A stretch of DNA of 64,000 nt, taken from Gemmatimonadota bacterium. Lineage in GTDB: Bacteria; Gemmatimonadota; Gemmatimonadetes; Gemmatimonadales; GWC2-71-9. Below are positions 38,233 through 49,471 of this stretch, one piece after another. Numbering within the stretch: position 1 is the first letter of the stretch; each line of letters begins with the position of its first letter. A model generated the notes under the pieces. That model was given only the letters and a program-made list of their open reading frames with translations. It was not told the DNA's origin and ran no database searches. The DNA is taken from the NCBI GenBank assembly GCA_029863245.1, contig JAOTVV010000002.1, positions 192,242 to 256,241 on the forward strand. Direction: 5' to 3'. Both the position numbers and the translations under genes were made by a program.

Positions 38233-38237
38233 CTGAG

Positions 38238-38321
38238 TGCCCGAGGACGGAGTCGAACCGTCACCCCGTTGCCGGGACGGGATTTTGAGTCCCGCGCGTC
38301 TACCAGTTCCACCACTCGGGC
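38238..38321 (-). tRNA. tRNA-Leu (anticodon CAA)
   Basis: Folded by hand. Acceptor GCCCGAG/CTCGGGC, 3-bp D stem, anticodon stem CGGGA/TCCCG with loop CUCAAAA, long variable arm (CCCG/CGGG), T arm GACGG-TTCGACT-CCGTC, discriminator A. No encoded CCA. Confidence 0.95.
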
Positions 38322-38370: not shown

Positions 38371-38856
38371 TTACATCCCCGGCCCTCCCGGCCCCCGCCC
38401 TTGCCCTCCACGCACGCGCTCGATCTGCATCTGCAGCCGGCGCCACGCGAGGGTCAACTGCGCGCGCTGTACCGGACTGAGGAAACTGGCGAATTCGCGT
38501 TGCTCGGTTCGCGCGCGTTCCACGCGCTCGGTCTCCAAAGCGAGCAGGTCGTCGATCAGCTTGGCCACGCTGTCGGCATTGGCCGCCATACCGGGACGCA
38601 TCTGCCCCTCGAGCGCAAACCACAGGTTCCGTTCACGGAGGGCCAGCGTGGTTCGGGCCTCGAACGATTGGCGCGTTATGTCCTCCAGCCGGCGATACTG
38701 CTCGTCGGTGAGGCCGGCCTGCGCCCGGTAGTTGGCCATGAACCGCTCCACGACTTGCTGCTGCAGCACCTGGCGCCGAACTTGGGGGTTCTGGGCCGCC
38801 AGCGGTCCGACCTGCACCGCGAGCAGCGTCGCCAATACGATCGCTCCGCGCATCAT
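38371..38856 (-). CDS. periplasmic LTXXQ-motif protein (Spy/CpxP-like)
   Basis: Last 161 aa of ORF 38371..39123, from the ATG at 38856 (ATGA overlap with the anti-sigma stop, GGAGGG upstream). Signal peptide, LTDEQ and LSPVQ motifs, helical, Gly-rich tail. Confidence 0.7.
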   Translation of the reverse strand: MMRGAIVLATLLAVQVGPLAAQNPQVRRQVLQQQVVERFMANYRAQAGLTDEQYRRLEDITRQSFEARTTLALRERNLWFALEGQMRPGMAANADSVAKLIDDLLALETERVERARTEQREFASFLSPVQRAQLTLAWRRLQMQIERVRGGQGRGPGGPGM

Positions 38857-39275
38857 CCCTCCATGCTCTTCAACAACTGAGTCAGCTCGTTCTCGTCCAG
38901 GTCGTCCAGCCCAACGGGGACCAGATCCGACACCGGAGCATCCATCCGGAGCGAATCCAGCACCTCGCTCAACTCGGCCACCGCAAGTTCTTGGATCTCC
39001 ACTGGAACGGCGCCAGCTTGCCTCCCGTCCGACGGCCGGGCGAGTTCCCGGATCCCGAACCCGACGGCGAGCACCACCGCGGCAGCCGCCGCAAGCTGCA
39101 CCAGCCTCGCGCGCTGCCACCACTGGCGCCGCACCGGCCTGGCCCTGAGACGAGCCGTCACCGCCGCGGCAACGTGCTCGGCGTCGATGCGGTCGGCCGC
39201 CTCTGCCCCGAGTCGCGGGGCGAGCTGCTCCAGCATCTGCTCGCGTTCGTCCATCATCGTCGTCCTCCGGCTCAC
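38853..39275 (-). CDS. putative anti-sigma factor (single-pass membrane protein)
   Basis: 140 aa, immediately downstream of and overlapping the ECF sigma stop. One TM (LVQLAAAAAVVLAVGFGI). Start is either the GTG at 39275 or the ATG at 39257 (GGAGGA upstream). Call rests on context only. Confidence 0.55.
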   Translation of the reverse strand: MSRRTTMMDEREQMLEQLAPRLGAEAADRIDAEHVAAAVTARLRARPVRRQWWQRARLVQLAAAAAVVLAVGFGIRELARPSDGRQAGAVPVEIQELAVAELSEVLDSLRMDAPVSDLVPVGLDDLDENELTQLLKSMEG

Positions 39276-39820
39276 TCCAGGGCGACTTTCAGCCGCCTGA
39301 CCGCGTGATGGTAGTGCACCCGCGCCGCTCCCACCGACGTCCCCAGCGCCGCAGCGATATCTGCGTACTCGGCACCGTGCTGCGCCCGCATGAGAAACAC
39401 GTTCCGCTGCATCGTCGGAAGCTGGGATACCGCCTCGCCGAGCCGCTCCAGTAGCTCCCGACCCACAACCTGCTCATGCGGACCATGCCGTACATCCGGA
39501 ACATCCCGGTCTTCGATCGACAACACCTTTGCACGTGTTCGCCGGCGGCCAAGATCCTTCAATGCGTTCGATCCGATAGCGAACAGCCACGTGCGGAAAC
39601 TGGACTTCCCCCGAAAACTCTCGATTCGGTCAAACGCTCGAAAGAACGTCTCCTGCACGACATCATCCAGATCCTCTTCGGCGCCGGCTGCAGCAAGGAA
39701 CCGGGCAAGCGGCCGGGTGTGGCGGGCGACCAGCGCTGCGGCCGCCGCTTGGTCTCCCCCTCGCCACGCCGCTACCAGGTCGGCGTCAGAATCACCTCGA
39801 GCATCCACGGCCGCCGTCAC
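39272..39820 (-). CDS. ECF-type RNA polymerase sigma factor
   Basis: 182 aa. Region 2 is DDVVQETFFRAFDRIESFRG.S.FRTWLFAI; region 4 is LPTMQRNVFLMR...YADIAAALGTSVGAARVHYHHAVRRL. Confidence 0.9.
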   Translation of the reverse strand: MTAAVDARGDSDADLVAAWRGGDQAAAAALVARHTRPLARFLAAAGAEEDLDDVVQETFFRAFDRIESFRGKSSFRTWLFAIGSNALKDLGRRRTRAKVLSIEDRDVPDVRHGPHEQVVGRELLERLGEAVSQLPTMQRNVFLMRAQHGAEYADIAAALGTSVGAARVHYHHAVRRLKVALE

Positions 39821-40005: not shown

Positions 40006-40605
40006 ATGATGACCTACGACGAGCGCCTCGAGCACCTCTTGGCCACCGCGGCCAACATCTTCGCCGCCCATGGCTTCCATTCCACGACCATGCGAGACCT
40101 CTCGCGGGCCACCGGAATGAGCCTGGCCGGCATGTATTACTACGTGGAAGGCAAGGACGAGCTGCTGTTCCTCATCCAGGAACGGTGTTTCACAGAGGTC
40201 CTGACTGGCGCGCGGGCGGCGATCGCGGCGGAGACGGACCCGCTGGAGCGCTTGCGGCGGTTCATCCGCCACCATGTCGGGTTCTTTACGGCGCACATGG
40301 CGGAGATGAAAGTGCTGTCGCATGAGGCGGAGAGCTTGAGCGGTGAGCGGTGGGAGACAGTCAATCGGCTCAAGCGCACCTACGTCGACCTGCTGCTGTC
40401 GGTGTTGGACAGCGCCCGTCCCGAGGCCGACTCGTCGATCGATGCTCGCGTGGCCGCGTTTGCGCTGTTTGGCATGATGAACTGGATCTACACTTGGTAC
40501 GATACGGAGGGACCGGTCCCTCCGGACCGGCTCGCCGATCAGTTGGCCGAGTTGTTCATGCTCGGGCTCGTGCCCTCGACCGTGCCGGCCGCCCAACAGG
40601 GATGA
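40006..40605 (+). CDS. TetR/AcrR family transcriptional regulator
   Basis: 199 aa. N-terminal HTH: AANIFAAHGFHSTTMRDLSRATGMSLAGMYYYV.GKDELL. Confidence 0.9.
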   Translation: MMTYDERLEHLLATAANIFAAHGFHSTTMRDLSRATGMSLAGMYYYVEGKDELLFLIQERCFTEVLTGARAAIAAETDPLERLRRFIRHHVGFFTAHMAEMKVLSHEAESLSGERWETVNRLKRTYVDLLLSVLDSARPEADSSIDARVAAFALFGMMNWIYTWYDTEGPVPPDRLADQLAELFMLGLVPSTVPAAQQG

Positions 40606-40639: not shown

Positions 40640-41581
40640 GTGACCCCCAAGCCGCTCGACCCCGCGGAGCAGGCTCTCATCGCCCGGATCAACGACGGGC
40701 TCATGATCGAGACCGTAGCAGACATGACCCCGGGATACAAGAAGGCGCTCCTGACGCAGCTGACCGTTCAGGGCGATACGGAGCTGATGAGCGCCCCCGC
40801 CTACTACTTAGCGGCCAGGGATGCCCCCACCATCAACAGCCGGATCGCGGTCACGGCCATCGTGCATGATGAGTTGGGCCACGCGAACATCGCCTATCGC
40901 ATCATGGAAGATCTGGGCGCCGACAAGCGTCAGCTCGTGTACGGTCGACAGCCCCACGAGTTCAAGCACCCGTACGGATTCGACCAACCACTGGAGAACT
41001 GGGCGGAGATGGTCGTAGCCAATGGCTTCTTCGACCGGGCGGGGATCACGCTCCTCTCCGACGTGCACCAAAACACGAGCTACGGCCCACTCAAACGCGC
41101 CCTCGTGAAGGTGGATCGTGAGGAGGTGCTGCACCTTCGCCACGGCGAGTCGTGGATGAAGAGGCTGGCCAAAGCCGGCGGCGAGGCACGAGACGCCCTG
41201 CAACGCACCGTGGATTGGATGTTCCCGATGACGCTCGAGTGGTTTGGCCTCCCCGACGATCTCAAGCGCCACAGCGGGCAGCTGGCGTATCGTCTCAAGG
41301 GTCTCACCAACGATCAGCTGCGGCAGACCTGGATGGCGGCCACGGTGCCATTGTGCGAGGGGATTGGTGTCGAGGTCCCGGCACACTTCGATGAGGCGAC
41401 CGACGCGTACGTCATCGACTTCCCCTTCCCCTGCCAGTACGACCCGAACGCCAAGCGCTGGCTGTTCGACGAGCCGCTCACGTGGGATCAGGTGTTCGAC
41501 CGCTGGAAGGCCCGTGGCCCGATGAACGAGCGCTATGTCGAGATGATCCAAGGCACCTTTGGGAGCGTCGTTGCCAACTGA
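40640..41581 (+). CDS. paaA: 1,2-phenylacetyl-CoA epoxidase subunit A-like di-iron oxygenase
   Basis: 313 aa, GTG start. Ferritin-like E..H motifs (HDELGHANIAY; DREEVLHLRHGESW). Followed by paaB/paaC/paaD homologues. Confidence 0.8.
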   Translation: MTPKPLDPAEQALIARINDGLMIETVADMTPGYKKALLTQLTVQGDTELMSAPAYYLAARDAPTINSRIAVTAIVHDELGHANIAYRIMEDLGADKRQLVYGRQPHEFKHPYGFDQPLENWAEMVVANGFFDRAGITLLSDVHQNTSYGPLKRALVKVDREEVLHLRHGESWMKRLAKAGGEARDALQRTVDWMFPMTLEWFGLPDDLKRHSGQLAYRLKGLTNDQLRQTWMAATVPLCEGIGVEVPAHFDEATDAYVIDFPFPCQYDPNAKRWLFDEPLTWDQVFDRWKARGPMNERYVEMIQGTFGSVVAN

Positions 41582-41882
41582 TCGACAGGTCTGGGATGCG
41601 CTCGGCGGAGTGACGGATCCGGAGTTCCCGCTGAGCATCGTCGATCTGGGCATGGTGTACGGGGTGCAGGTCGAGGCCACCCGGACCCGGGTGACCATGA
41701 CCTTCACCTCGATCGGATGCCCGGCCATTGACATGCTGGTTGCCGATGTGCGAGAGGCCGTCGGAGCGCTGCCGGGCGTCGATGAGGTCGACGTAGAAAT
41801 CGTCTGGGATCCACCGTGGACCCGAGACCGGATCAGCGACCGCGGGCGGCGGGTGCTGGCCATGTACGGCGTCGTCGGATGA
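41559..41882 (+). CDS. paaD: DUF59/MIP18-family protein = N-terminal domain of PaaD
   Basis: 107 aa: V.DPEFPLSIVDLGMVY.V......V.MTFTS.GCPA...L. Stops before the Zn-ribbon that full-length PaaD carries. Start (TTG at 41559 or 41571) is uncertain. Confidence 0.7.
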   Translation: MGASLPTDRQVWDALGGVTDPEFPLSIVDLGMVYGVQVEATRTRVTMTFTSIGCPAIDMLVADVREAVGALPGVDEVDVEIVWDPPWTRDRISDRGRRVLAMYGVVG

Positions 41883-41895
41883 GCGGAGGAGATGC

Positions 41896-42111
41896 ATGAG
41901 CTCAGGAAGGGTGTATGAGGTGTTTGCGCGAAAGAACCACGATGAGGAGCTGAAGCACGTCGGGAGCGTCAACGCCACCGACGACGACCTCGCCAAAGCA
42001 TACGCGTGGACCCTCTACGACGAGGAGCGCTGGGTCGAGATGTGTGTCGTGCCGCGAAGCGCCATCGTATCGATCACGAACGAGGGACCGCTCCCCGTAT
42101 GGGGGAACTAG
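41896..42111 (+). CDS. paaB: 1,2-phenylacetyl-CoA epoxidase subunit B
   Basis: 71 aa. VYEVFARKNHDEELKHVGSVNA...A...A...Y.ER.W.EM.VVP...I is PaaB-like. Confidence 0.8.
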   Translation: MSSGRVYEVFARKNHDEELKHVGSVNATDDDLAKAYAWTLYDEERWVEMCVVPRSAIVSITNEGPLPVWGN

Positions 42112-42165
42112 GGTGAACGACGGTCAGGCGACATCCCAGAGGCGAACGAGGATTCACGAGAGCAC

Positions 42166-42987
42166 ATGAGCATCGCGACGACACCCGCATTCGAGTCCAC
42201 CGAGGGCATGAGCGAGCCCTGCGCGCGGGGTCTCCGCCAGATCCTGCTGGCCTGCGCCGACACCAAACTCCTGCTTGGCTACCACTACGGTGAGTGGACC
42301 TTCGGGACGCCCGAACTGGAAGCGGCCGTGGCCAGTTGCTCGCTGGCGCAAGGGGAATTGGGCCACGTGCGGTTGCTGCACGCCCTGTTGAGCAAGCATT
42401 TCGGCGACGATCCCGACGCGCTCATGGACAAACGAGCGGCCACGGACTTCGCCAACGTCGGCTTTCTGGATCGGACCGTGGTCGACTGGGCCGGGTTCGT
42501 GGCGATGAACTACGTGGTGGACCTCGCGGTCACGCGGGTGCTCCACTCTATGCAGGGCTCCACGTTCAAGCCGATCCACATGAGCGTCGACAAGATGCTC
42601 GACGAGGAGCGCTACCACCTGCATCATGGACGCGGCTGGTTCCGCACGCTGGCGACACGAGGTGGTGAGACGAAGACTGCCCTGGAGCGTCAGGCAGAAC
42701 TGGCCCTACGGTCGGTCGCGGAGTGGCTCGGACCGGCCGACGACCACGACGATCGCGCCCTGGTGTCGGCGGGGGTGAAGCGCGCCGACAATCAGACCAT
42801 CTACCGCGCGCTGTGTGACGACGTCGAGCGCCTGGCTGCGGCAGTGGGAACTCGGGTGCAGGCCCCTGCCCCGACCAATTTCTCGGGATGGACTTCGGCA
42901 AACCGGCGCATTGGCGGCGGCGGTCCGGACGAGGAGATTCTCTTCCACCTACGCGGCACCAAGAACGAGGTATTCAAGCTGAACTGA
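42166..42987 (+). CDS. paaC: 1,2-phenylacetyl-CoA epoxidase subunit C-like protein
   Basis: 273 aa. ADTKLLLGYHYGEWTFG.PELE..VA..SLAQ.ELGH.RLL is the PaaC pattern. Confidence 0.75.
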   Translation: MSIATTPAFESTEGMSEPCARGLRQILLACADTKLLLGYHYGEWTFGTPELEAAVASCSLAQGELGHVRLLHALLSKHFGDDPDALMDKRAATDFANVGFLDRTVVDWAGFVAMNYVVDLAVTRVLHSMQGSTFKPIHMSVDKMLDEERYHLHHGRGWFRTLATRGGETKTALERQAELALRSVAEWLGPADDHDDRALVSAGVKRADNQTIYRALCDDVERLAAAVGTRVQAPAPTNFSGWTSANRRIGGGGPDEEILFHLRGTKNEVFKLN

Positions 42988-43172
42988 TGGCCGAGCCCCT
43001 AGTGCCCTGCCCATTCTGCAGATCCACCGAGACCGAGAAGCGATCGGATTTCGGGACGTCCCTCATGGTACGGCTCCATTACTGCCGGGATTGCCACTCC
43101 CATTTCGAGGCCATCAAGTGGGGTGACCGTGCGGCGAAGCTCGATCTGCCGCAGTTCCTCGAGGAGCGGTGA
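42987..43172 (+). CDS. stand-alone PaaD-type zinc-ribbon protein
   Basis: Last 61 aa of ORF 42888..43172, from the ATG at 42987 overlapping the paaC stop (TGATG). VPCPFCRSTETEKRSDFGTSLMVRLHYCRDCHSHFEAIKW resembles the C-terminal CPxC...SEFGST...YxCxxCxxPFxxFK ribbon of PaaD (from memory). Confidence 0.6.
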   Translation: MAEPLVPCPFCRSTETEKRSDFGTSLMVRLHYCRDCHSHFEAIKWGDRAAKLDLPQFLEER

Positions 43173-43248: not shown

Positions 43249-44058
43249 ATGACCGATTGGGCAGCCCCGACCAAGAAGACGCTTGTGGAGTATCGAGTGG
43301 AGGACGGGATCGCCATCCTGACCCTCAACGATCCCCCAGCGAATACCTACACGTACAACATGATGCAGCAGCTGGACCGGGCCATTGTCACGGCGCGCAT
43401 GGACGATGACGCCCACGTGATCGTCCTCCGCGGTCAGGGCGAGAAGTTCTTCTCCGCCGGGGCCAACATCCAGATGCTGAACGAGGTCACTCCCCGGTTC
43501 AAATACTTCTTCTGTCTCCACGCCAACGAGACACTCAATCGTTTGGAGCACACCCCGAAGCTGGTGATCGGGGCTCTCAACGGCCACACCGTGGGCGGTG
43601 GTCTCGAGATCGCCCTCGCGTGCGACATCCGCGTTGCCGCCAAAGATGCCGGAAAGATCGGCTTGCCCGAAGTGAACCTGGGCGTTTTGCCCGGGACCGG
43701 TGGCACCCAGCGTCTATCTCGCATCCTCGGCAAGTCGCAGTCGATTGAGATGATGGCGACGGGAACCCTCTTTTCGTTCGAAGAGGCCAAGCAGTGGGGC
43801 CTCGTGAACCGGATCTTTCCCAAAGCGACGTTCTGGGATGAGTTCATGAAGTACGCGCGCCAGTTCGTGCCGCCCAACAAGGCCGCGAAGGCCGTCGGCG
43901 CTATCAAGCGCGCGGTCTGCTCCGGGTGCGAGGTCCCCTTCGAGAGCGGTCTGGCCATCGAGCGCGAGTTGCAGCAGCAGCTCTTCCAGAGTCAGGACGC
44001 CAAAGAGGGGCTCGCCGCGTACGTCGAGAAGCGTACCCCCAACTTCACGGGCGCGTAG
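43249..44058 (+). CDS. enoyl-CoA hydratase/isomerase family protein (crotonase 1)
   Basis: ORF 43123..44058 trimmed to the ATG at 43249 (GGAGGA upstream). ILTLNDPPAN...FFSAGANI...NGHTVGGGLEIALACDIRV. Confidence 0.88.
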   Translation: MTDWAAPTKKTLVEYRVEDGIAILTLNDPPANTYTYNMMQQLDRAIVTARMDDDAHVIVLRGQGEKFFSAGANIQMLNEVTPRFKYFFCLHANETLNRLEHTPKLVIGALNGHTVGGGLEIALACDIRVAAKDAGKIGLPEVNLGVLPGTGGTQRLSRILGKSQSIEMMATGTLFSFEEAKQWGLVNRIFPKATFWDEFMKYARQFVPPNKAAKAVGAIKRAVCSGCEVPFESGLAIERELQQQLFQSQDAKEGLAAYVEKRTPNFTGA

Positions 44059-45492
44059 GTGCAGACGCGACTGTTCATCGGGAACGAATGGCGGGAGGCC
44101 ACCTCGGGCGCGACGCTCGAGGTGGTCAATCCGGCCACCGAGGAGCTCCTCGCTACGGTCCACGCCGCCGGTGAAGCCGACGTGGATGCCGCGGTCACGG
44201 CGGCGCGCGCCTGCTTCGAGTCGGATCCTTGGCGAGCCTTCTCGGGCCGTAAACGCGGCGCCTTGCTCCACCGCGCAGCCCAGCTTCTTCACGAGCGCGG
44301 CGACGAGCTGGCCGAGATGGAGACACGGCAGAACGGCAAGCCGCTGTTCGAGTCAAAGATCGATGTGGCGTCCACGGTGGAGACACTGACCTACTACGCG
44401 GGGTGGGCCGACAAGCTGGCCGGTGACGTGCTGCCTGTCGATGGGCCGGACTTCGTCTTCACCCAGCGGGAGCCGATCGGCGTGGTCGGCGCGATCGTCC
44501 CGTGGAACTTCCCGCTCAACTTGGCGAGCTGGAAGGTCGCACCCGCGCTCGCCGTGGGGTGCACGGTGGTGCTCAAACCCGCACCCGAGACGCCGCTCAC
44601 GGCGCTGGCACTCGCCGAGATTATGCTGGAAGCGGGGTTCCCCCCCGGGGCGATCAACGTGATCCCCGGGGATGGTCCCACCACCGGGGCAGCGCTGGTG
44701 CGCCATCCCGGCGTCGACAAGATCGCGTTCACGGGCTCCACCCCGGTGGGGCGGCAAGTCATGCGGGATGCTGCCGGCACGCTGAAGCGGGTGACCCTGG
44801 AGCTCGGTGGCAAGAGTCCGAACATCGTGTTTGCGGATGCCGACTTGAAGGCCGCCGTGCGCGGGGCGCAGACCGGCATCTTCTACGGCAAGGGCGAGGT
44901 GTGCGCTGCGGGGTCCCGCCTCTTGGTCGAGCGCTCGGTGCACGACCACGTCGTCGAGGAGCTCGTCGCGCGGGCAGCGAAGCTCGCCCCCGGCGACCCA
45001 TTCGACAAGGACACGCGCATCGGTGCGCTGGCGTCGAGGCGGCAATTCGACAAAGTGATGTCGTACGTCGAGGCGGGGAAACGTGAGGCGAAGCTCGTGA
45101 CCGGCGGGACGGCGACCAAGGTGAATGGCAAGGGTTATTTCGTCGAGGCGACCGTTTTCGACGACGCAGAGCCAGGAATGAAGATCGTGGAGGAAGAGAT
45201 CTTCGGTCCGGTGCTCGCCGTGTTGACGTTCGACGACGTAGACGAGGCCGTGCAGCTCGCCAACAGGACGATCTACGGATTGGCGGCAGGCGTCTGGACG
45301 AAAGACATCAAAAAGGCCTTCACCGTGGCCCGCGCCGTGCGCGCCGGCACGGTTTGGGTCAACAGCTACAACCTGTACGACTCGGCCGCCCCGTTCGGCG
45401 GATTCAAGGGAAGTGGCTTTGGCCGCGACCTGGGCCGTGAGGCGCTGGACGGCTACACGGACGTCAAGACGGTGTGGGTCGGCCTGCGGTGA
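44059..45492 (+). CDS. NAD(P)-dependent aldehyde dehydrogenase
   Basis: 477 aa, GTG start directly after the upstream TAG. VPWNFPL, FTGST.VG, ELGGKSP, EVCAAGSR (catalytic Cys), EEIFGPV. Confidence 0.93.
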   Translation: MQTRLFIGNEWREATSGATLEVVNPATEELLATVHAAGEADVDAAVTAARACFESDPWRAFSGRKRGALLHRAAQLLHERGDELAEMETRQNGKPLFESKIDVASTVETLTYYAGWADKLAGDVLPVDGPDFVFTQREPIGVVGAIVPWNFPLNLASWKVAPALAVGCTVVLKPAPETPLTALALAEIMLEAGFPPGAINVIPGDGPTTGAALVRHPGVDKIAFTGSTPVGRQVMRDAAGTLKRVTLELGGKSPNIVFADADLKAAVRGAQTGIFYGKGEVCAAGSRLLVERSVHDHVVEELVARAAKLAPGDPFDKDTRIGALASRRQFDKVMSYVEAGKREAKLVTGGTATKVNGKGYFVEATVFDDAEPGMKIVEEEIFGPVLAVLTFDDVDEAVQLANRTIYGLAAGVWTKDIKKAFTVARAVRAGTVWVNSYNLYDSAAPFGGFKGSGFGRDLGREALDGYTDVKTVWVGLR

Positions 45493-46307
45493 CCGGCCGA
45501 TCGACCGACGGGGGCGATCTCGAGAACGTCCTCGTCGAGGTGAAGAATGGCATCGGCACGATCACGCTCAATCGTCCCGAGAAGCTGAACGCGTTCGCTG
45601 GCCGCATGCGCGACGACGCTGCGTTGGCCGTGGAGCAGCTGGCCTCCGATCCCGCCGTGCGTGTCCTGGTGCTCACGGGCGCCGGGCGGGCCTTCTCGGC
45701 GGGTGCCGATGTCGCCTACATGCGCGACCTCCTCGCCAACGACGACACCGACGGCTTCACCGCCCTCGTGGAGTCCGGCAGAGCAGTCGTGACCCGGATC
45801 CGCGCCACGCCCAAACCCGTGATCGCCAGCGTCAACGGTCCCGCGGCAGGAGGAGGTGCAAACCTCGCTCTGGCCTGCGACATCCGGGTCGCCTCGGATC
45901 GAGCGTCCATCGGACAGACCTTCAATCGCATCGGCCTTCATCCCGATTGGGGCGGGACCTATTTCCTGCCGCGACTGGTAGGGCAATCCAAGGCATTGGA
46001 ACTCATCTTCACGGGGGAGATGGTGGGGGCGACCGAGGCCTTGCGTATCGGACTGTTCGATCGTGTGGTCCCTCACGACGAGCTGGCGTCGGCCACGACG
46101 ACTCTGGCCGCGTTGCTCGCGGCCAAGCCACCGCTGGCCCTGGCCCTGGCAAAACGCGCCATCTACCAGAGCCTCGATGGAACCATGGACGAAGTGTTGG
46201 ACCGAGAACTCGCCCACCAGCTCGAATGCTTCTCGTCCGACGACACGCGCGAGGGTCTTCGCGCCTTCCTGGAGAAGCGCGAGCCCCGGTTTCGGGGAAC
46301 GCAATGA
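45489..46307 (+). CDS. enoyl-CoA hydratase/isomerase family protein (crotonase 2)
   Basis: ORF 45474..46307. The GTG at 45489 gives a GTGA overlap with the ALDH stop. ITLNRPEKLNAF...LTGAGRAFSAGADV...NGPAAGGGANLALACDIRV. Confidence 0.88.
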   Translation: MTGRSTDGGDLENVLVEVKNGIGTITLNRPEKLNAFAGRMRDDAALAVEQLASDPAVRVLVLTGAGRAFSAGADVAYMRDLLANDDTDGFTALVESGRAVVTRIRATPKPVIASVNGPAAGGGANLALACDIRVASDRASIGQTFNRIGLHPDWGGTYFLPRLVGQSKALELIFTGEMVGATEALRIGLFDRVVPHDELASATTTLAALLAAKPPLALALAKRAIYQSLDGTMDEVLDRELAHQLECFSSDDTREGLRAFLEKREPRFRGTQ

Positions 46308-46975
46308 CCTTAGTCGTCGCCCATCGGGGTGCTTCGGCGTACGAAGTCGAGAACTCGCTGTCGGCCTTTCGGTTGGCCCACGCCATGGGCGCCGAAGGGA
46401 TCGAGCTGGATGTGCACGTGACGGCCGACGGCGTCCCGATCGTTCACCACGATCCGGTGGTAGACGGTCATCCCATCTGGCACACACCCTGGCCCGCACT
46501 CGAGGAGCATACGCTCTCAAACGGGGAATCGATGCCCACCCTGGCCGAGGCGCTGGAAGCGATCGATCCGTCGCTCCAGGTGTTTGTCGAGGTGAAATCA
46601 CTGTCGCCGCGGGATGACGTGAATCTCCTCTCGGTCATCGACCGTGGTCCGGCCCCATCCCAATACCAGGTGCACGCGTTCGATCACCGCATCGTCCGTC
46701 GGCTGCGCGCGCACCGGCCCACGCTCGAGGCTGGCGTGCTGTCCGCATCCTACCCCGTCAGGCCACTGGCCGCCGCACTGGAGGCGGGCGCCGCGGTGCT
46801 CTGGCAGGAAGAGACGCTGGTCGATGGAGACCTGATCGACCTCGCGCATGCAGAGCAGATCCAGGTCTTCGCCTGGACCGTGGACGACCGTGCCCGCATG
46901 CAGGTGCTCTCGAGCCTGGGGATCGACGCGCTCTGCACCAATCGCCCGGATGTGGCTCGGGAGGTGCTCGGGTGA
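46304..46975 (+). CDS. glycerophosphodiester phosphodiesterase family protein
   Basis: Last 223 aa of track ORF 45413..46975, from the ATG at 46304 (ATGA overlap). VVAHRGAS..EVENSLSAFRLA...GAEGIELDVH.T.DG.PIV.HD. Confidence 0.85.
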   Translation: MTLVVAHRGASAYEVENSLSAFRLAHAMGAEGIELDVHVTADGVPIVHHDPVVDGHPIWHTPWPALEEHTLSNGESMPTLAEALEAIDPSLQVFVEVKSLSPRDDVNLLSVIDRGPAPSQYQVHAFDHRIVRRLRAHRPTLEAGVLSASYPVRPLAAALEAGAAVLWQEETLVDGDLIDLAHAEQIQVFAWTVDDRARMQVLSSLGIDALCTNRPDVAREVLG

Positions 46976-47832
46976 CCCGGGTGTGCGTGATCGGCGCCGG
47001 CACCATGGGCCACGGCATCGCACAGATGGCCGCACTCGCGGGCTACGACACGGCCCTCACCGACGCCCGCGCCGAGGCGCTGCCGCAGGCCAAAGAGCGT
47101 ATCGACGCAAACCTCGAAGGGGGCATTGCACGCGGCAAGCTCTCCCGCGAGGCGGCGGATGCGGCCCGACAGCACCTGGCATTCAGCGAGCACTTGCGGG
47201 ATGCCGCCGCGGGAGCCGACCTGGTCATCGAAGCCATCGTCGAAGACCTCGACGCCAAGCGGAGCCTGATCGGCGAGGTCGACACACTGGTGTCGCCGCA
47301 GTGTGTCCTTGCCACCAACACGTCGTCGCTGTCGGTCGCACGCATCGCTGCTGCGTCTTCCGCGCCCGAACGCGTGATCGGCATGCACTTCTTCAACCCC
47401 GTGCACATCATGAGACTGGTCGAGCTGGTAGTCCACGACGGCACCAGCGCGCCGACGGTGGCCATTGCGCGGACCGTCGCCGAACGTCTGGGCAAGGTGC
47501 CCATCGTGGCCAAGGATCGGCCCGGGTTTGCGTCATCACGGCTCGGTGTGGTGCTCGGGCTTGAGGCCATGCGCATGGTGGAAGAGGGGGTCGCATCACC
47601 GGAAGACATCGACACCGCCATGGAGCTTGGCTACGGACACCCGATGGGGCCGCTCAAGGTGAGTGATCTGGTGGGGCTCGACGTACGGCTCGCGATAGCG
47701 GATTATCTACACCGCGAACTCAAAGGTCCATGGTATGCTCCGCCCGACATCCTGCGACGGAAAGTCGCAGCGGGGGAGCTGGGGAAGAAATCAGGGAGGG
47801 GGTTCTACGAATGGCCGACCAAGTCGTCGTAG
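46972..47832 (+). CDS. 3-hydroxyacyl-CoA (3-hydroxybutyryl/3-hydroxyadipyl-CoA) dehydrogenase
   Basis: 286 aa, GTGA overlap. VIGAGTMGHGIAQ...EAIVEDL..K......NTSSLS...GMHFFNP......DRPGF...R. PaaH/Hbd-like. Confidence 0.93.
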   Translation: MTRVCVIGAGTMGHGIAQMAALAGYDTALTDARAEALPQAKERIDANLEGGIARGKLSREAADAARQHLAFSEHLRDAAAGADLVIEAIVEDLDAKRSLIGEVDTLVSPQCVLATNTSSLSVARIAAASSAPERVIGMHFFNPVHIMRLVELVVHDGTSAPTVAIARTVAERLGKVPIVAKDRPGFASSRLGVVLGLEAMRMVEEGVASPEDIDTAMELGYGHPMGPLKVSDLVGLDVRLAIADYLHRELKGPWYAPPDILRRKVAAGELGKKSGRGFYEWPTKSS

Positions 47833-48590
47833 TCGACATCCAAGGGCGCGTCGCGACCGTCACCATCAATCGGCCCGACAAGCTCAACGCGCTGAACGCC
47901 CAGGTTCGTCATGACTTCGTGGCGGCCCTGGAAGACCTCGCGCGGAACGAAGCGGTCCGGGTGGTCATCGTCACGGGCTCCGGTGACAAGGCGTTCGTCG
48001 CCGGAGCGGACATCAAGGAATTCGCCGGTCGCACAGGCTACGATCAGTTCCGCGTCACCAAGAGCTTCGGGATCTTCGAAGCGCCGGAACGGTGTCCCAA
48101 GCCCGTGATCGCCGCGGTCAACGGTTTTGCACTCGGCGGCGGGTGCGAGCTGGCCATGGCGTGCGACGTCCGGATCGCGTCCCACACGGCGAAGCTCGGG
48201 CAGCCCGAGATCAACCTGGGCATTCTGCCGGGCGGTGGCGGCACGCAACGGCTTCCACGCCTGGTGGGTCTCGGCACGGCCTACAAGCTCCTCTACACTG
48301 GCGAGCTGGTGGGTGCTGAGGAGGCGCTCAGGATCGGTCTGGTGGACGAGGTTGTTCCGCACGAACGCCTCATGACGCGCGTGCAGGAGCTGGCCGGACA
48401 GATGGCTGAGAAGAGCCCTGCGGCGCTCCAGTTCATCAAAGAGGCTGTGCGGGCCAGCGTCCGGATGCCGCTCGACGAGGGCGTGCGGCTCGAGACTGCG
48501 CTGTTCGGCTTGGCGTTCTCCACCCACGACAAGGAAGAGGGCGTCCACGCCTTTCTCGAAAAGCGCAAAGCCGACTTCAAGGGCACGTGA
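47811..48590 (+). CDS. enoyl-CoA hydratase (crotonase 3, short-chain type)
   Basis: ORF 47730..48590 trimmed to the ATG at 47811. ATVTINRPDKLNAL...TGSGDKAFVAGADI...NGFALGGGCELAMACDVRI. Confidence 0.9.
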   Translation: MADQVVVVDIQGRVATVTINRPDKLNALNAQVRHDFVAALEDLARNEAVRVVIVTGSGDKAFVAGADIKEFAGRTGYDQFRVTKSFGIFEAPERCPKPVIAAVNGFALGGGCELAMACDVRIASHTAKLGQPEINLGILPGGGGTQRLPRLVGLGTAYKLLYTGELVGAEEALRIGLVDEVVPHERLMTRVQELAGQMAEKSPAALQFIKEAVRASVRMPLDEGVRLETALFGLAFSTHDKEEGVHAFLEKRKADFKGT

Positions 48591-49471
48591 GCGCGGAGGC
48601 CAATGCGGTGAGTGCCACGGCGCTCCCCGGGGTGACAGACTTGCACGTCCACATCCAGCCGTGGAGCCAGCTGAAGCCCGAGGTGGCCGCCGCGATGCGG
48701 CGCGGCAAGGAAGACCACTGGGAGCGCCTGCTCTCCTTGATGGAGGACCCCACGGCACTCCTCGAGGTCCTCGACACGAGCGGCATTTGGCGTGTCGGGC
48801 TCGTCAACTATCCCAGCCAAGACCTGATGGGATTTACCGACGACACAAACCTGTTTGCGGCGCAGTACGCATCGGCGGCACCCCAACGGCTCCTTCCCTA
48901 CGGAGGCGTTCATCCGCGGTTCACGACCGACCCTGAAGGGCAGGTGGAGGAGTTGCTGCGGCTGGGGATCCGTTGCCTCAAGATCCACCCACCGCACCAA
49001 GTCTTCCCCGCCAACGCCTACACTATGGGACTCGAGGCACTGGGGAAGATCTATCGCCGGTGTGAGGAGCGGGGTCTTCCGGTCATGATCCACACCGGCA
49101 CCAGCATCTTTCCCGGTGCGCGCAGCAAGTATGGCCGGCCCATGGAACTCGACGACGTCGCGATCGATTTCCCCGATCTCACCATCCTCATGGCCCACGG
49201 CGGACGGCCATTGTGGATGGACGAGGCCTTTTTCATTCTGCGGCGGCATCGGAACGTGTATCTGGAGCTGTCGGGCATTCCGCCAAAGAAGCTCCTGGAG
49301 TACTTCCCCCGTCTCGAAGAGATCGGCGATCGGGTCGTGTGGGGTACGGATTGGCCGAGTCCCGGGGTGAACGATCTCCGGCAGAACCTCGACCAGTTCA
49401 GGGCGTTGCCGCTGCCCGCTGCGCTCAAAGACAGCATCACGCGGACCACTCCCCTCCGGCTGTTCCCGTGA
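48587..49471 (+). CDS. amidohydrolase-2 (TIM-barrel metal-dependent hydrolase/decarboxylase) family protein
   Basis: 294 aa, GTGA overlap. DLHVHIQP...IKIHPPHQ...VMIHTG...LMAHGG...WGTDWP. Confidence 0.8.
   Translation: MSAEANAVSATALPGVTDLHVHIQPWSQLKPEVAAAMRRGKEDHWERLLSLMEDPTALLEVLDTSGIWRVGLVNYPSQDLMGFTDDTNLFAAQYASAAPQRLLPYGGVHPRFTTDPEGQVEELLRLGIRCLKIHPPHQVFPANAYTMGLEALGKIYRRCEERGLPVMIHTGTSIFPGARSKYGRPMELDDVAIDFPDLTILMAHGGRPLWMDEAFFILRRHRNVYLELSGIPPKKLLEYFPRLEEIGDRVVWGTDWPSPGVNDLRQNLDQFRALPLPAALKDSITRTTPLRLFP

Follow-up and report, generated by a model that had tools for sequence, protein, structure and literature searches.

A 64-kb stretch of DNA from a Gemmatimonadota bacterium (the window, within which all coordinates below are given unless a locus is named) carries, at positions 40640-43172 of the + strand, five co-directional and tightly packed open reading frames (ORFs) that encode relatives of the phenylacetyl-coenzyme A (CoA) epoxidase subunits PaaA, PaaB, and PaaC, together with the two domains of PaaD as separate small proteins. 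We conclude that this cluster is probably a member of a conserved and phylogenetically distinct sister family of the phenylacetyl-CoA epoxidase operon, and we propose a mechanism for it. The sister family, in which the PaaD domains are interleaved with the oxygenase subunits, is widespread and unstudied and is not a one-off rearrangement. The five core ORFs are listed here with their lengths in amino acids (aa).

40640-41581, + strand: PaaA-like catalytic di-iron oxygenase subunit, 313 aa (Pfam PaaA_PaaC, 200 bits)
41559 or 41571-41882, + strand: DUF59 protein, PaaD N-terminal half, 107 or 103 aa (Pfam PF01883 FeS_assembly_P, 83.5 bits, above the gathering threshold of 23.5)
41896-42111, + strand: PaaB-like small subunit, 71 aa (Pfam PaaB, 36.7 bits, cut-off 27)
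42166-42987, + strand: PaaC-like subunit, 273 aa (Pfam PaaA_PaaC, 112 bits)
42987-43172, + strand: four-Cys zinc ribbon, PaaD C-terminal half, 61 aa (Pfam PF23451 Zn_ribbon_PaaD, 49.0 bits, above the gathering threshold of 27, E value 4.7e-13)

PaaD encoded as two proteins

The identities that a sequence-only reading had given to these ORFs (PaaA-like, DUF59, PaaB, PaaC, and a 61-aa ribbon) were recovered in Pfam and NCBIfam searches. GC content at third codon positions was coding-like in all five (0.79 to 0.84) within a sequence of 66% GC overall. PaaC was the best NCBIfam match of the PaaC-like protein, and E. coli PaaC was its top match in the PDB. The DUF59 protein scored 95.8 bits against the NCBIfam SufT model and 93.1 bits against SUF_assoc, with PaaD-type models scoring best. 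It shares the DUF59 fold and the conserved GCP motif with the SufT/MIP18-type iron-sulfur (Fe-S) maturation factors; unlike the genes for those factors, however, its gene lies in an oxygenase operon beside paaA and is accompanied by a PaaD-type ribbon gene. The PaaB-like protein (41896-42111) additionally matched NCBIfam TIGR04031 (Htur_1727 family rSAM-partnered candidate RiPP) at 38.2 bits (cut-off, 57.2), which is slightly above its score against the PaaB equivalog model.

The correspondence of the two small proteins to PaaD is direct. Of the 146 positions in PaaD model TIGR02159, the DUF59 protein covers 1 to 88 and the ribbon covers 103 to 144, each matching one half and not the other, and when the two are joined they align colinearly with E. 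coli PaaD, with the break falling in the inter-domain linker. The DUF59 protein aligns to residues 10 to 109 of E. coli PaaD, including the GCPA motif. In line with the earlier reading, the ribbon thus resembles the C-terminal part of PaaD, and the two halves are separate ORFs that lie about 1.1 kb apart. Both small genes are packed against a gene for a large subunit. The TTG start of the DUF59 gene, at 41559 or 41571, overlaps the end of paaA by 23 or 11 nucleotides, while at the end of paaC the sequence reads AAC TGA TGG, so that the paaC stop codon and the ribbon start codon share one base in the TGATG overlap that had been described.

A frameshift or misjoin that mimics a split gene is a general possibility for any assembled sequence, and the earlier reading had judged a frameshift unlikely. 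We reject such an artifact and give it a negligible probability: three independent European Nucleotide Archive (ENA) contigs carry identical proteins in the same gene order, about 1.1 kb of real genes lies between the halves, and dozens of genomes share the layout. The ribbon ORF is likewise not a chance reading frame, because 18 of its residues are invariant in 29 homologues (among them C8, C11, C33, and C36) and because the identical gene set is found in three ENA assemblies. Beyond the cysteines, the ribbon has a C-terminal tail of the form W-G-D-x4-L-D-L-P-x-F-L (residues 45 to 61; window positions 43120-43169). This tail is kept in most Gemmatimonadota homologues and in some distant ribbons (as DLPAFL or DLPNFL) and is absent in E. 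coli PaaD, which stops right after the ribbon.

Gene order, clade structure, and metal ligands

The same proteins, in the same five-gene order, were found on three separate ENA contigs representing independent assemblies of the same organism, and the closest homologues come from Gemmatimonadota metagenome-assembled genomes. A scan of GTDB with a ribbon profile, using one genome per species, returned 47 loci, mostly from Gemmatimonadota, with a few bins labeled KSB1, Acidimicrobiia, Cytophagia, or unclassified. ORFs called in these loci were labeled through phmmer searches that used proteins of the window together with Paa proteins from E. coli. On every contig of sufficient length, the order is TetR, A, DUF59, B, C, ribbon, enoyl-CoA hydratase (ECH), aldehyde dehydrogenase (ALDH), (thiolase), PaaG-like, glycerophosphodiester phosphodiesterase (GDPD)-like, 3-hydroxyacyl-CoA dehydrogenase, PaaF-like, and Amidohydro_2. 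The interleaved arrangement is the fixed form in these 47 GTDB genomes, mostly of Gemmatimonadota. The earlier reading had also noted that no ferredoxin-NADH reductase gene (paaE) follows the cluster. This held well beyond the cluster itself, as E. coli PaaE had no tblastn match in the 64-kb window, and in none of the 47 loci did phmmer label anything PaaE-like or PaaK-like within a distance of about 7 kb.

The family extends far beyond these genomes. A ribbon profile search of 1.84 billion representative proteins gave 631 clusters (50% identity) at an E value of ≤0.001; among the best 150 of the 631, nearly all ribbons are stand-alone proteins of 41 to 133 aa, with one long protein carrying a C-terminal ribbon. 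Almost none of the distant ribbon clusters bears a name. Three distant metagenome ribbons were traced to their contigs, and all three lie directly after a PaaC-like gene in a cluster running A, DUF59, ..., B, C, ribbon. In one, whose ribbon clusters with Candidatus Acetothermia proteins, a restriction-modification gene lies between DUF59 and B; a second has an extra 128-aa ORF at that position; and in the third (locus L056), B and C are separated by a 70-aa ORF, and A is directly preceded by a gene for a PaaK-type ligase, the only ligase beside the cluster among the loci examined. The A-DUF59-B-C-ribbon order was also found on Haloterrigena turkmenica plasmid pHTUR01 (L058) and on Thermus thermophilus plasmid pHB5018c (L059). 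Across every interleaved locus that covers both genes of a pair, A is adjacent to DUF59 and C is adjacent to the ribbon, even where insertions separate DUF59 from B or B from C.

The two plasmid clusters resemble that of the window in their A-DUF59-B-C-ribbon-ECH order, in the KEHDEH ligand pattern of the C subunit (see below), and in clade membership, and differ from it in belonging to other phyla and in having different neighboring genes. Their proteins carry generic names (“Phenylacetic acid catabolic protein” and “metal-sulfur cluster assembly factor”), and literature searches found no experimental work on them. The annotation tables of both plasmids omit the ribbon ORFs, at L059 6947-7150 and L058 6989-7165; the Thermus table has an enoyl-CoA hydratase call, apparently over-extended at its 5' end, that overlaps the ribbon in another frame. 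One Joint Genome Institute annotation of the window's own organism calls the ribbon only as a 35-aa fragment (P0022). A small 2Fe-2S ferredoxin gene, a possible electron donor, lies divergently upstream of the Haloterrigena cluster (L058 3482-3766, minus strand); neither the window nor the Gemmatimonadota loci showed a counterpart.

To place the A and C subunits, a neighbor-joining tree was computed from 40 A and C sequences (Poisson distance; 200 bootstraps), in which each paralogue roots the other. The interleaved sequences formed a clade of their own for both subunits (A, 200 of 200 bootstraps; C, 159 of 200), with the window proteins inside, and for each subunit the canonical bacterial and haloarchaeal sequences together formed its sister group (A, 200 of 200; C, 194 of 200). 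The sequence-only reading had described the cluster as rearranged phenylacetyl-CoA epoxidase genes with a split PaaD. The split PaaD and the missing PaaE stand, whereas the rearrangement does not. Had a canonical paaABCDE operon been rearranged and split in this one lineage and lost paaE, this would explain why each part has a counterpart in E. coli paaABCD and why the break falls exactly at the PaaD linker. However, 47 genomes share the fixed order, which is met again in Thermus, Haloterrigena, KSB1, and the locus whose ribbon clusters with Candidatus Acetothermia proteins; the A and C proteins lie in a clade apart from the canonical ones; and the C subunit keeps ligands that are gone from canonical bacterial PaaC. 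We consider such an event very improbable.

The metal ligands further separate the groups. Di-iron ligand columns were mapped from E. coli PaaA (E42, E72, H75, D126, E155, and H158). All six ligands (EEHDEH) are present in the A subunit of the window, in 47 of 47 clade members, and in every A protein aligned. The interleaved C subunits read KEHDEH in 55 of 58 sequences, including that of the window, and KDHDEH in two, with a gap at the first position in the remaining one; the PaaC-like subunit of the window thus keeps five of the six ligand positions and has an invariant Lys instead of the first Glu. The context of these columns aligns convincingly (ADTK versus GDTE and QxELGH versus QDELGH). 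In haloarchaeal PaaC all six ligands are present (EEHDEH, three of three clusters), while the four canonical bacterial PaaC proteins are degenerate at these columns (E. coli, CLQDAH; Rhodococcus, ALQALH; Ralstonia, ALQAMH; and Paracoccus, ALQDVH). The ligand-bearing PaaC of the interleaved clade appears to be a new feature. In the canonical cluster of Paracoccus denitrificans plasmid 1, a third PaaA_PaaC-family protein is encoded after paaE (L063 6385-7137; 250 aa, “Phenylacetic acid catabolic protein”), and its ligand columns read EKHGEH.

Compared with the PaaABC(D)E systems of E. coli and Pseudomonas, the window encodes homologous A, B, and C subunits, an A subunit with all six di-iron ligands, the two PaaD domains in its DUF59 and ribbon proteins, a regulator, here of the TetR family, and, farther downstream, proteins resembling PaaG, PaaF, and PaaH. 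It differs in its order (A-DUF59-B-C-ribbon rather than A-B-C-D-E), in having PaaD as two proteins, in lacking PaaE, PaaK, PaaI, and PaaJ, in the five ligand positions plus Lys of its C subunit, in the separate clade of A and C, and in equivalog scores below the cut-offs. In the canonical clusters of Rhodococcus, Ralstonia, and Paracoccus, PaaD is fused and 153 to 184 aa long, and a true PaaE of about 360 aa is encoded after it.

The split of PaaD is not in itself a first sighting, as it is already catalogued in RefSeq and NCBIfam for haloarchaea. RefSeq plasmids of Haloferax mediterranei (pHM500), Haloarcula sinaiiensis, and Halogeometricum borinquense carry paaA, paaB, paaC, a DUF59-only paaD of about 140 to 147 aa, and a 55-aa ribbon named “paaE”; among the corresponding NCBIfam models NF041867-NF041869, NF041868 describes the DUF59-only PaaD and NF041869 a 56-position ribbon named PaaE. 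These clusters share with the window the split PaaD, the absence of a flavin/Fe-S reductase gene, a C subunit with ligands, and a stand-alone ALDH and an amidohydrolase nearby. In contrast to the window, their order is A-B-C-DUF59-ribbon with the halves adjacent, their A and C proteins group with canonical bacterial PaaA and PaaC, their PaaC has all six ligands, and they encode PaaK and a PaaI-type thioesterase. The window proteins also score below the haloarchaeal cut-offs (DUF59 protein against paad_haloarch NF041868, 114.3 bits, cut-off 180; ribbon against paae_haloarch NF041869, 38.3 bits, cut-off 100). Neither a split PaaD nor the interleaved operon was described in any paper found by full-text literature searches; in a review of 2015 and a survey of 2026, PaaD is a single DUF59 protein with no assigned role.

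In the taxa sampled, a fused PaaD, an in-cluster PaaE gene, and a degenerate C site go together, as do a split PaaD, the absence of an in-cluster PaaE gene, and a ligand-bearing C subunit. Metal ligands are more easily lost than regained. Because of this, and because the haloarchaeal branch and the sister clade both have the split, separate PaaD genes are favored as the older state; on parsimony in this small sample, they were probably fused once, on the canonical bacterial branch. A more far-reaching proposal would combine several such elements: that the interleaved clade is a functionally distinct ring-epoxidase architecture resembling the ancestral state, with a metal site in C, DUF59 partnering A, the ribbon partnering C, and no dedicated PaaE, and that canonical PaaABCDE arose later, when the halves had moved and fused, the C site had decayed, and PaaE had been recruited. 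We put this joint proposal forward as speculative and, in all its parts at once, unlikely.

Neighboring genes and the probable substrate

The core cluster is preceded by a regulator gene and followed by a run of genes on the same strand, as follows.

40006-40605, + strand: TetR-family regulator (Pfam TetR_N, TetR_C_24)
43249-44058, + strand: enoyl-CoA hydratase/isomerase family protein, ECH1 (Pfam ECH_1; GGAGGA ribosome-binding site before the ATG at 43249)
44059-45492, + strand: ALDH (Pfam Aldedh, 611 bits)
45474-46307, + strand: enoyl-CoA hydratase family protein, best PaaG match in the window (TIGR02280 PaaG is the top NCBIfam match)
46304-46975, + strand: GDPD-like protein (weak NCBIfam match to glycerophosphodiester phosphodiesterase; conserved in the Gemmatimonadota cluster)
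46972-47832, + strand: 3-hydroxyacyl-CoA dehydrogenase, short and PaaH-like (NCBIfam; 42% identity to the N-terminal part of E. coli PaaH)
47811-48590, + strand: enoyl-CoA hydratase, best PaaF match in the window (NCBIfam; 43% identity to E. coli PaaF)
48587-49471, + strand: Amidohydro_2 family protein (Pfam Amidohydro_2, 120 bits; conserved last gene of the cluster)

The TetR-family gene lies directly 5' of A in most related loci whose sequence reaches upstream of A, and its product is a probable PaaR-like repressor of the cluster. ECH1, which is next after the ribbon in most related loci, shares 43% identity with an ECH in the Thermus plasmid cluster. The ALDH shares 46.5% identity with the ALDH beside the Haloferax paa cluster and 43.6% with the Thermus one; it may be a stand-alone equivalent of the dehydrogenase half of PaaZ. 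PaaG is the ring-epoxide isomerase; the PaaG-like protein scored 233 bits against TIGR02280 (cut-off, 345) and shares 40% identity with E. coli PaaG. A PaaJ-like thiolase gene stands between the ALDH and PaaG-like genes in about 25 related loci (e.g., L008-L011, L016, and L020) and is lacking in the window and its nearest relatives (e.g., L005); in the window, the end of the ALDH gene overlaps the start of the next gene (45492/45474). The GDPD-like and Amidohydro_2 genes are fixed in the Gemmatimonadota cluster and have no counterparts among the E. coli paa genes. The Amidohydro_2 protein shares 28 to 29% identity with the amidohydrolases beside the haloarchaeal paa clusters (E values of 1e-21 to 1e-24), and its gene is followed on the same strand by a DASS transporter gene.

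Searches of the 64-kb window by tblastn with E. coli K-12 proteins (E value of ≤1e-3) found no PaaE, PaaK, PaaJ, PaaI, PaaX, or PaaY, and no reductase or ferredoxin was seen among the Pfam and NCBIfam annotations of the roughly 50 other window genes. The remaining genes are mostly housekeeping (GroEL/ES, glycolysis, DnaB, RadA, ribosomal proteins, and RNase E/G, among others). A tRNA-Leu(CAA) gene (38237-38321, minus strand) lies between the TetR gene of the cluster and an HD-domain gene, and its neighbors are an ECF-type sigma factor gene (39272-39820) with two small ORFs downstream (together 38371-39820, minus strand).

The pathway context is supportive of phenylacetyl-CoA as the substrate, if indirectly so: the predicted products downstream include the best matches to PaaG, PaaF, and PaaH and an ALDH, a PaaK-like ligase gene adjoins the cluster in L056, and a PaaY-like gene is part of the Thermus plasmid cluster. 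Several points weigh against our interpretation. All four NCBIfam equivalog scores are well below their cut-offs (PaaA-like against TIGR02156, 122.7 bits, cut-off 280; PaaB-like against TIGR02157, 34.1 bits, cut-off 85.45; PaaC-like against TIGR02158, 84.3 bits, cut-off 133.35; PaaD model, 80 bits, cut-off 108), which leaves the label “phenylacetyl-CoA epoxidase” not secured; for this label, assigned in the sequence-only reading, the Pfam families agree and the equivalog models do not. No PaaK gene was found in the window or in the 47 Gemmatimonadota-type loci. In Thermus thermophilus, strain HB8 carries paaABCD in canonical form, and the interleaved C subunit is called “paaC_2” where it is annotated on plasmids of other strains; the presence of two copies, one of them canonical, might point to a different substrate for the other. 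With 40 sequences, the neighbor-joining tree is small. Finally, the suggested pairing of DUF59 with A and of the ribbon with C is based on gene adjacency, and the haloarchaeal DUF59 gene follows C, not A.

Some of these points would be accounted for if the cluster encoded a paralogous Paa-type oxygenase acting on another CoA thioester, with the split PaaD parts in the same accessory role. The sub-cut-off scores, an identity of only 30% between the PaaA-like protein and E. coli PaaA, the absence of PaaK from 47 loci, the “paaC_2” copies on Thermus thermophilus plasmids, and the conserved GDPD-like and Amidohydro_2 genes all fit such a paralogue, as does the Haloterrigena cluster, which sits amid UbiD decarboxylases, a CoA-transferase, and an acyl-CoA synthetase. 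On the other hand, a PaaK-type ligase gene is found beside A in L056, a PaaY-like gene in the Thermus cluster, and the downstream genes are those expected following epoxidation of the phenylacetyl-CoA ring. We regard a different substrate as an unlikely alternative. The BoxAB benzoyl-CoA epoxidase offers a comparison, as it too is a di-iron oxygenase that epoxidizes the ring of an aromatic CoA thioester, and the PaaC-like protein of the window matches BoxB weakly (24 bits, far below the cut-off of 499). However, BoxB is a single large oxygenase paired with the reductase BoxA, and no BoxA was found in the window.

Proposed roles of the PaaD halves

The cysteines of the ribbon are arranged in two knuckles, CPxC...CxxC, and its AlphaFold model is a three-stranded ribbon (predicted local distance difference test score, 78.6). 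A Foldseek search with this model gave no match at an E value of ≤0.001, the nearest structures being the zinc ribbons of NrdR, Dof, VdcD, and ELOF1, of which VdcD is the small subunit of a decarboxylase. A PDB sequence search found no solved structure of the ribbon, returning only insignificant zinc-ribbon matches, and neither Pfam nor NCBIfam gave a rubredoxin hidden Markov model (HMM) match. These results bear on whether the ribbon could instead be a rubredoxin-like, iron-binding electron carrier that replaces part of PaaE and feeds the C or A subunit. Such a role would fit the four invariant cysteines in their knuckles, the absence of PaaE from every locus, the RefSeq name PaaE for the haloarchaeal ribbon, and the constant position of the ribbon gene after a C subunit with a near-complete metal site. 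However, canonical PaaD contains this ribbon too, in operons that encode PaaE as well, no rubredoxin HMM matches it, the nearest folds are ordinary zinc ribbons, none of them significant, and a reductase would still be required. An electron-carrier role thus appears improbable.

We instead favor the reading in which the window encodes a member of the sister family of ring epoxidases, and for this family we propose the following. The PaaA-like protein would be the di-iron catalytic subunit and would epoxidize an aryl-acetyl-CoA on its ring; phenylacetyl-CoA or a close analogue is the most likely substrate. The PaaB-like and PaaC-like proteins would build the heteromeric core. The cell would make the two PaaD domains as distinct small proteins, with translation of DUF59 coupled to that of A and translation of the ribbon to that of C, in each case the large subunit encoded just upstream. 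Both may help the oxygenase core, and not a PaaE reductase, to mature or assemble, or may belong to that core as small subunits. DUF59, made right after A, would act on A, and the ribbon may bind C as a small zinc-stabilized subunit, for which the LDLPxFL tail may be a docking peptide. Electrons would come from a reductase or ferredoxin encoded elsewhere, and the products of the downstream hydratase/isomerase, ALDH, and hydroxyacyl-CoA dehydrogenase genes would process the ring-opened product.

PaaD is the one component of phenylacetate epoxidase without an assigned function and has been guessed to load metal into PaaE or PaaA. It is required in vivo and not in vitro, and metal delivery is the usual guess for DUF59/SufT-like proteins (PMC4498308). 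That more than 50 loci keep both PaaD halves and encode no PaaE nearby argues that the target of PaaD is the oxygenase core; if the ancestral-architecture proposal were true, the function of PaaD would sit on the oxygenase core and not on the reductase. The naming of the ribbon is inconsistent, as it is called “PaaE” in haloarchaea and “hypothetical” or “transposase-like” in metagenome and metagenome-assembled genome annotations and is unlisted on the Thermus and Haloterrigena plasmids; surveys that count PaaD or PaaE by name are therefore wrong for these lineages. Two points within this family are new and useful: C retains metal ligands, and each small gene is paired in a fixed way with a large-subunit gene. 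A metal site that is conserved and almost complete in C casts doubt on the notion, drawn from E. coli, that PaaC is purely structural, and the fixed adjacencies of A to DUF59 and of C to the ribbon suggest concrete pairings that offer a handle on the function of PaaD.

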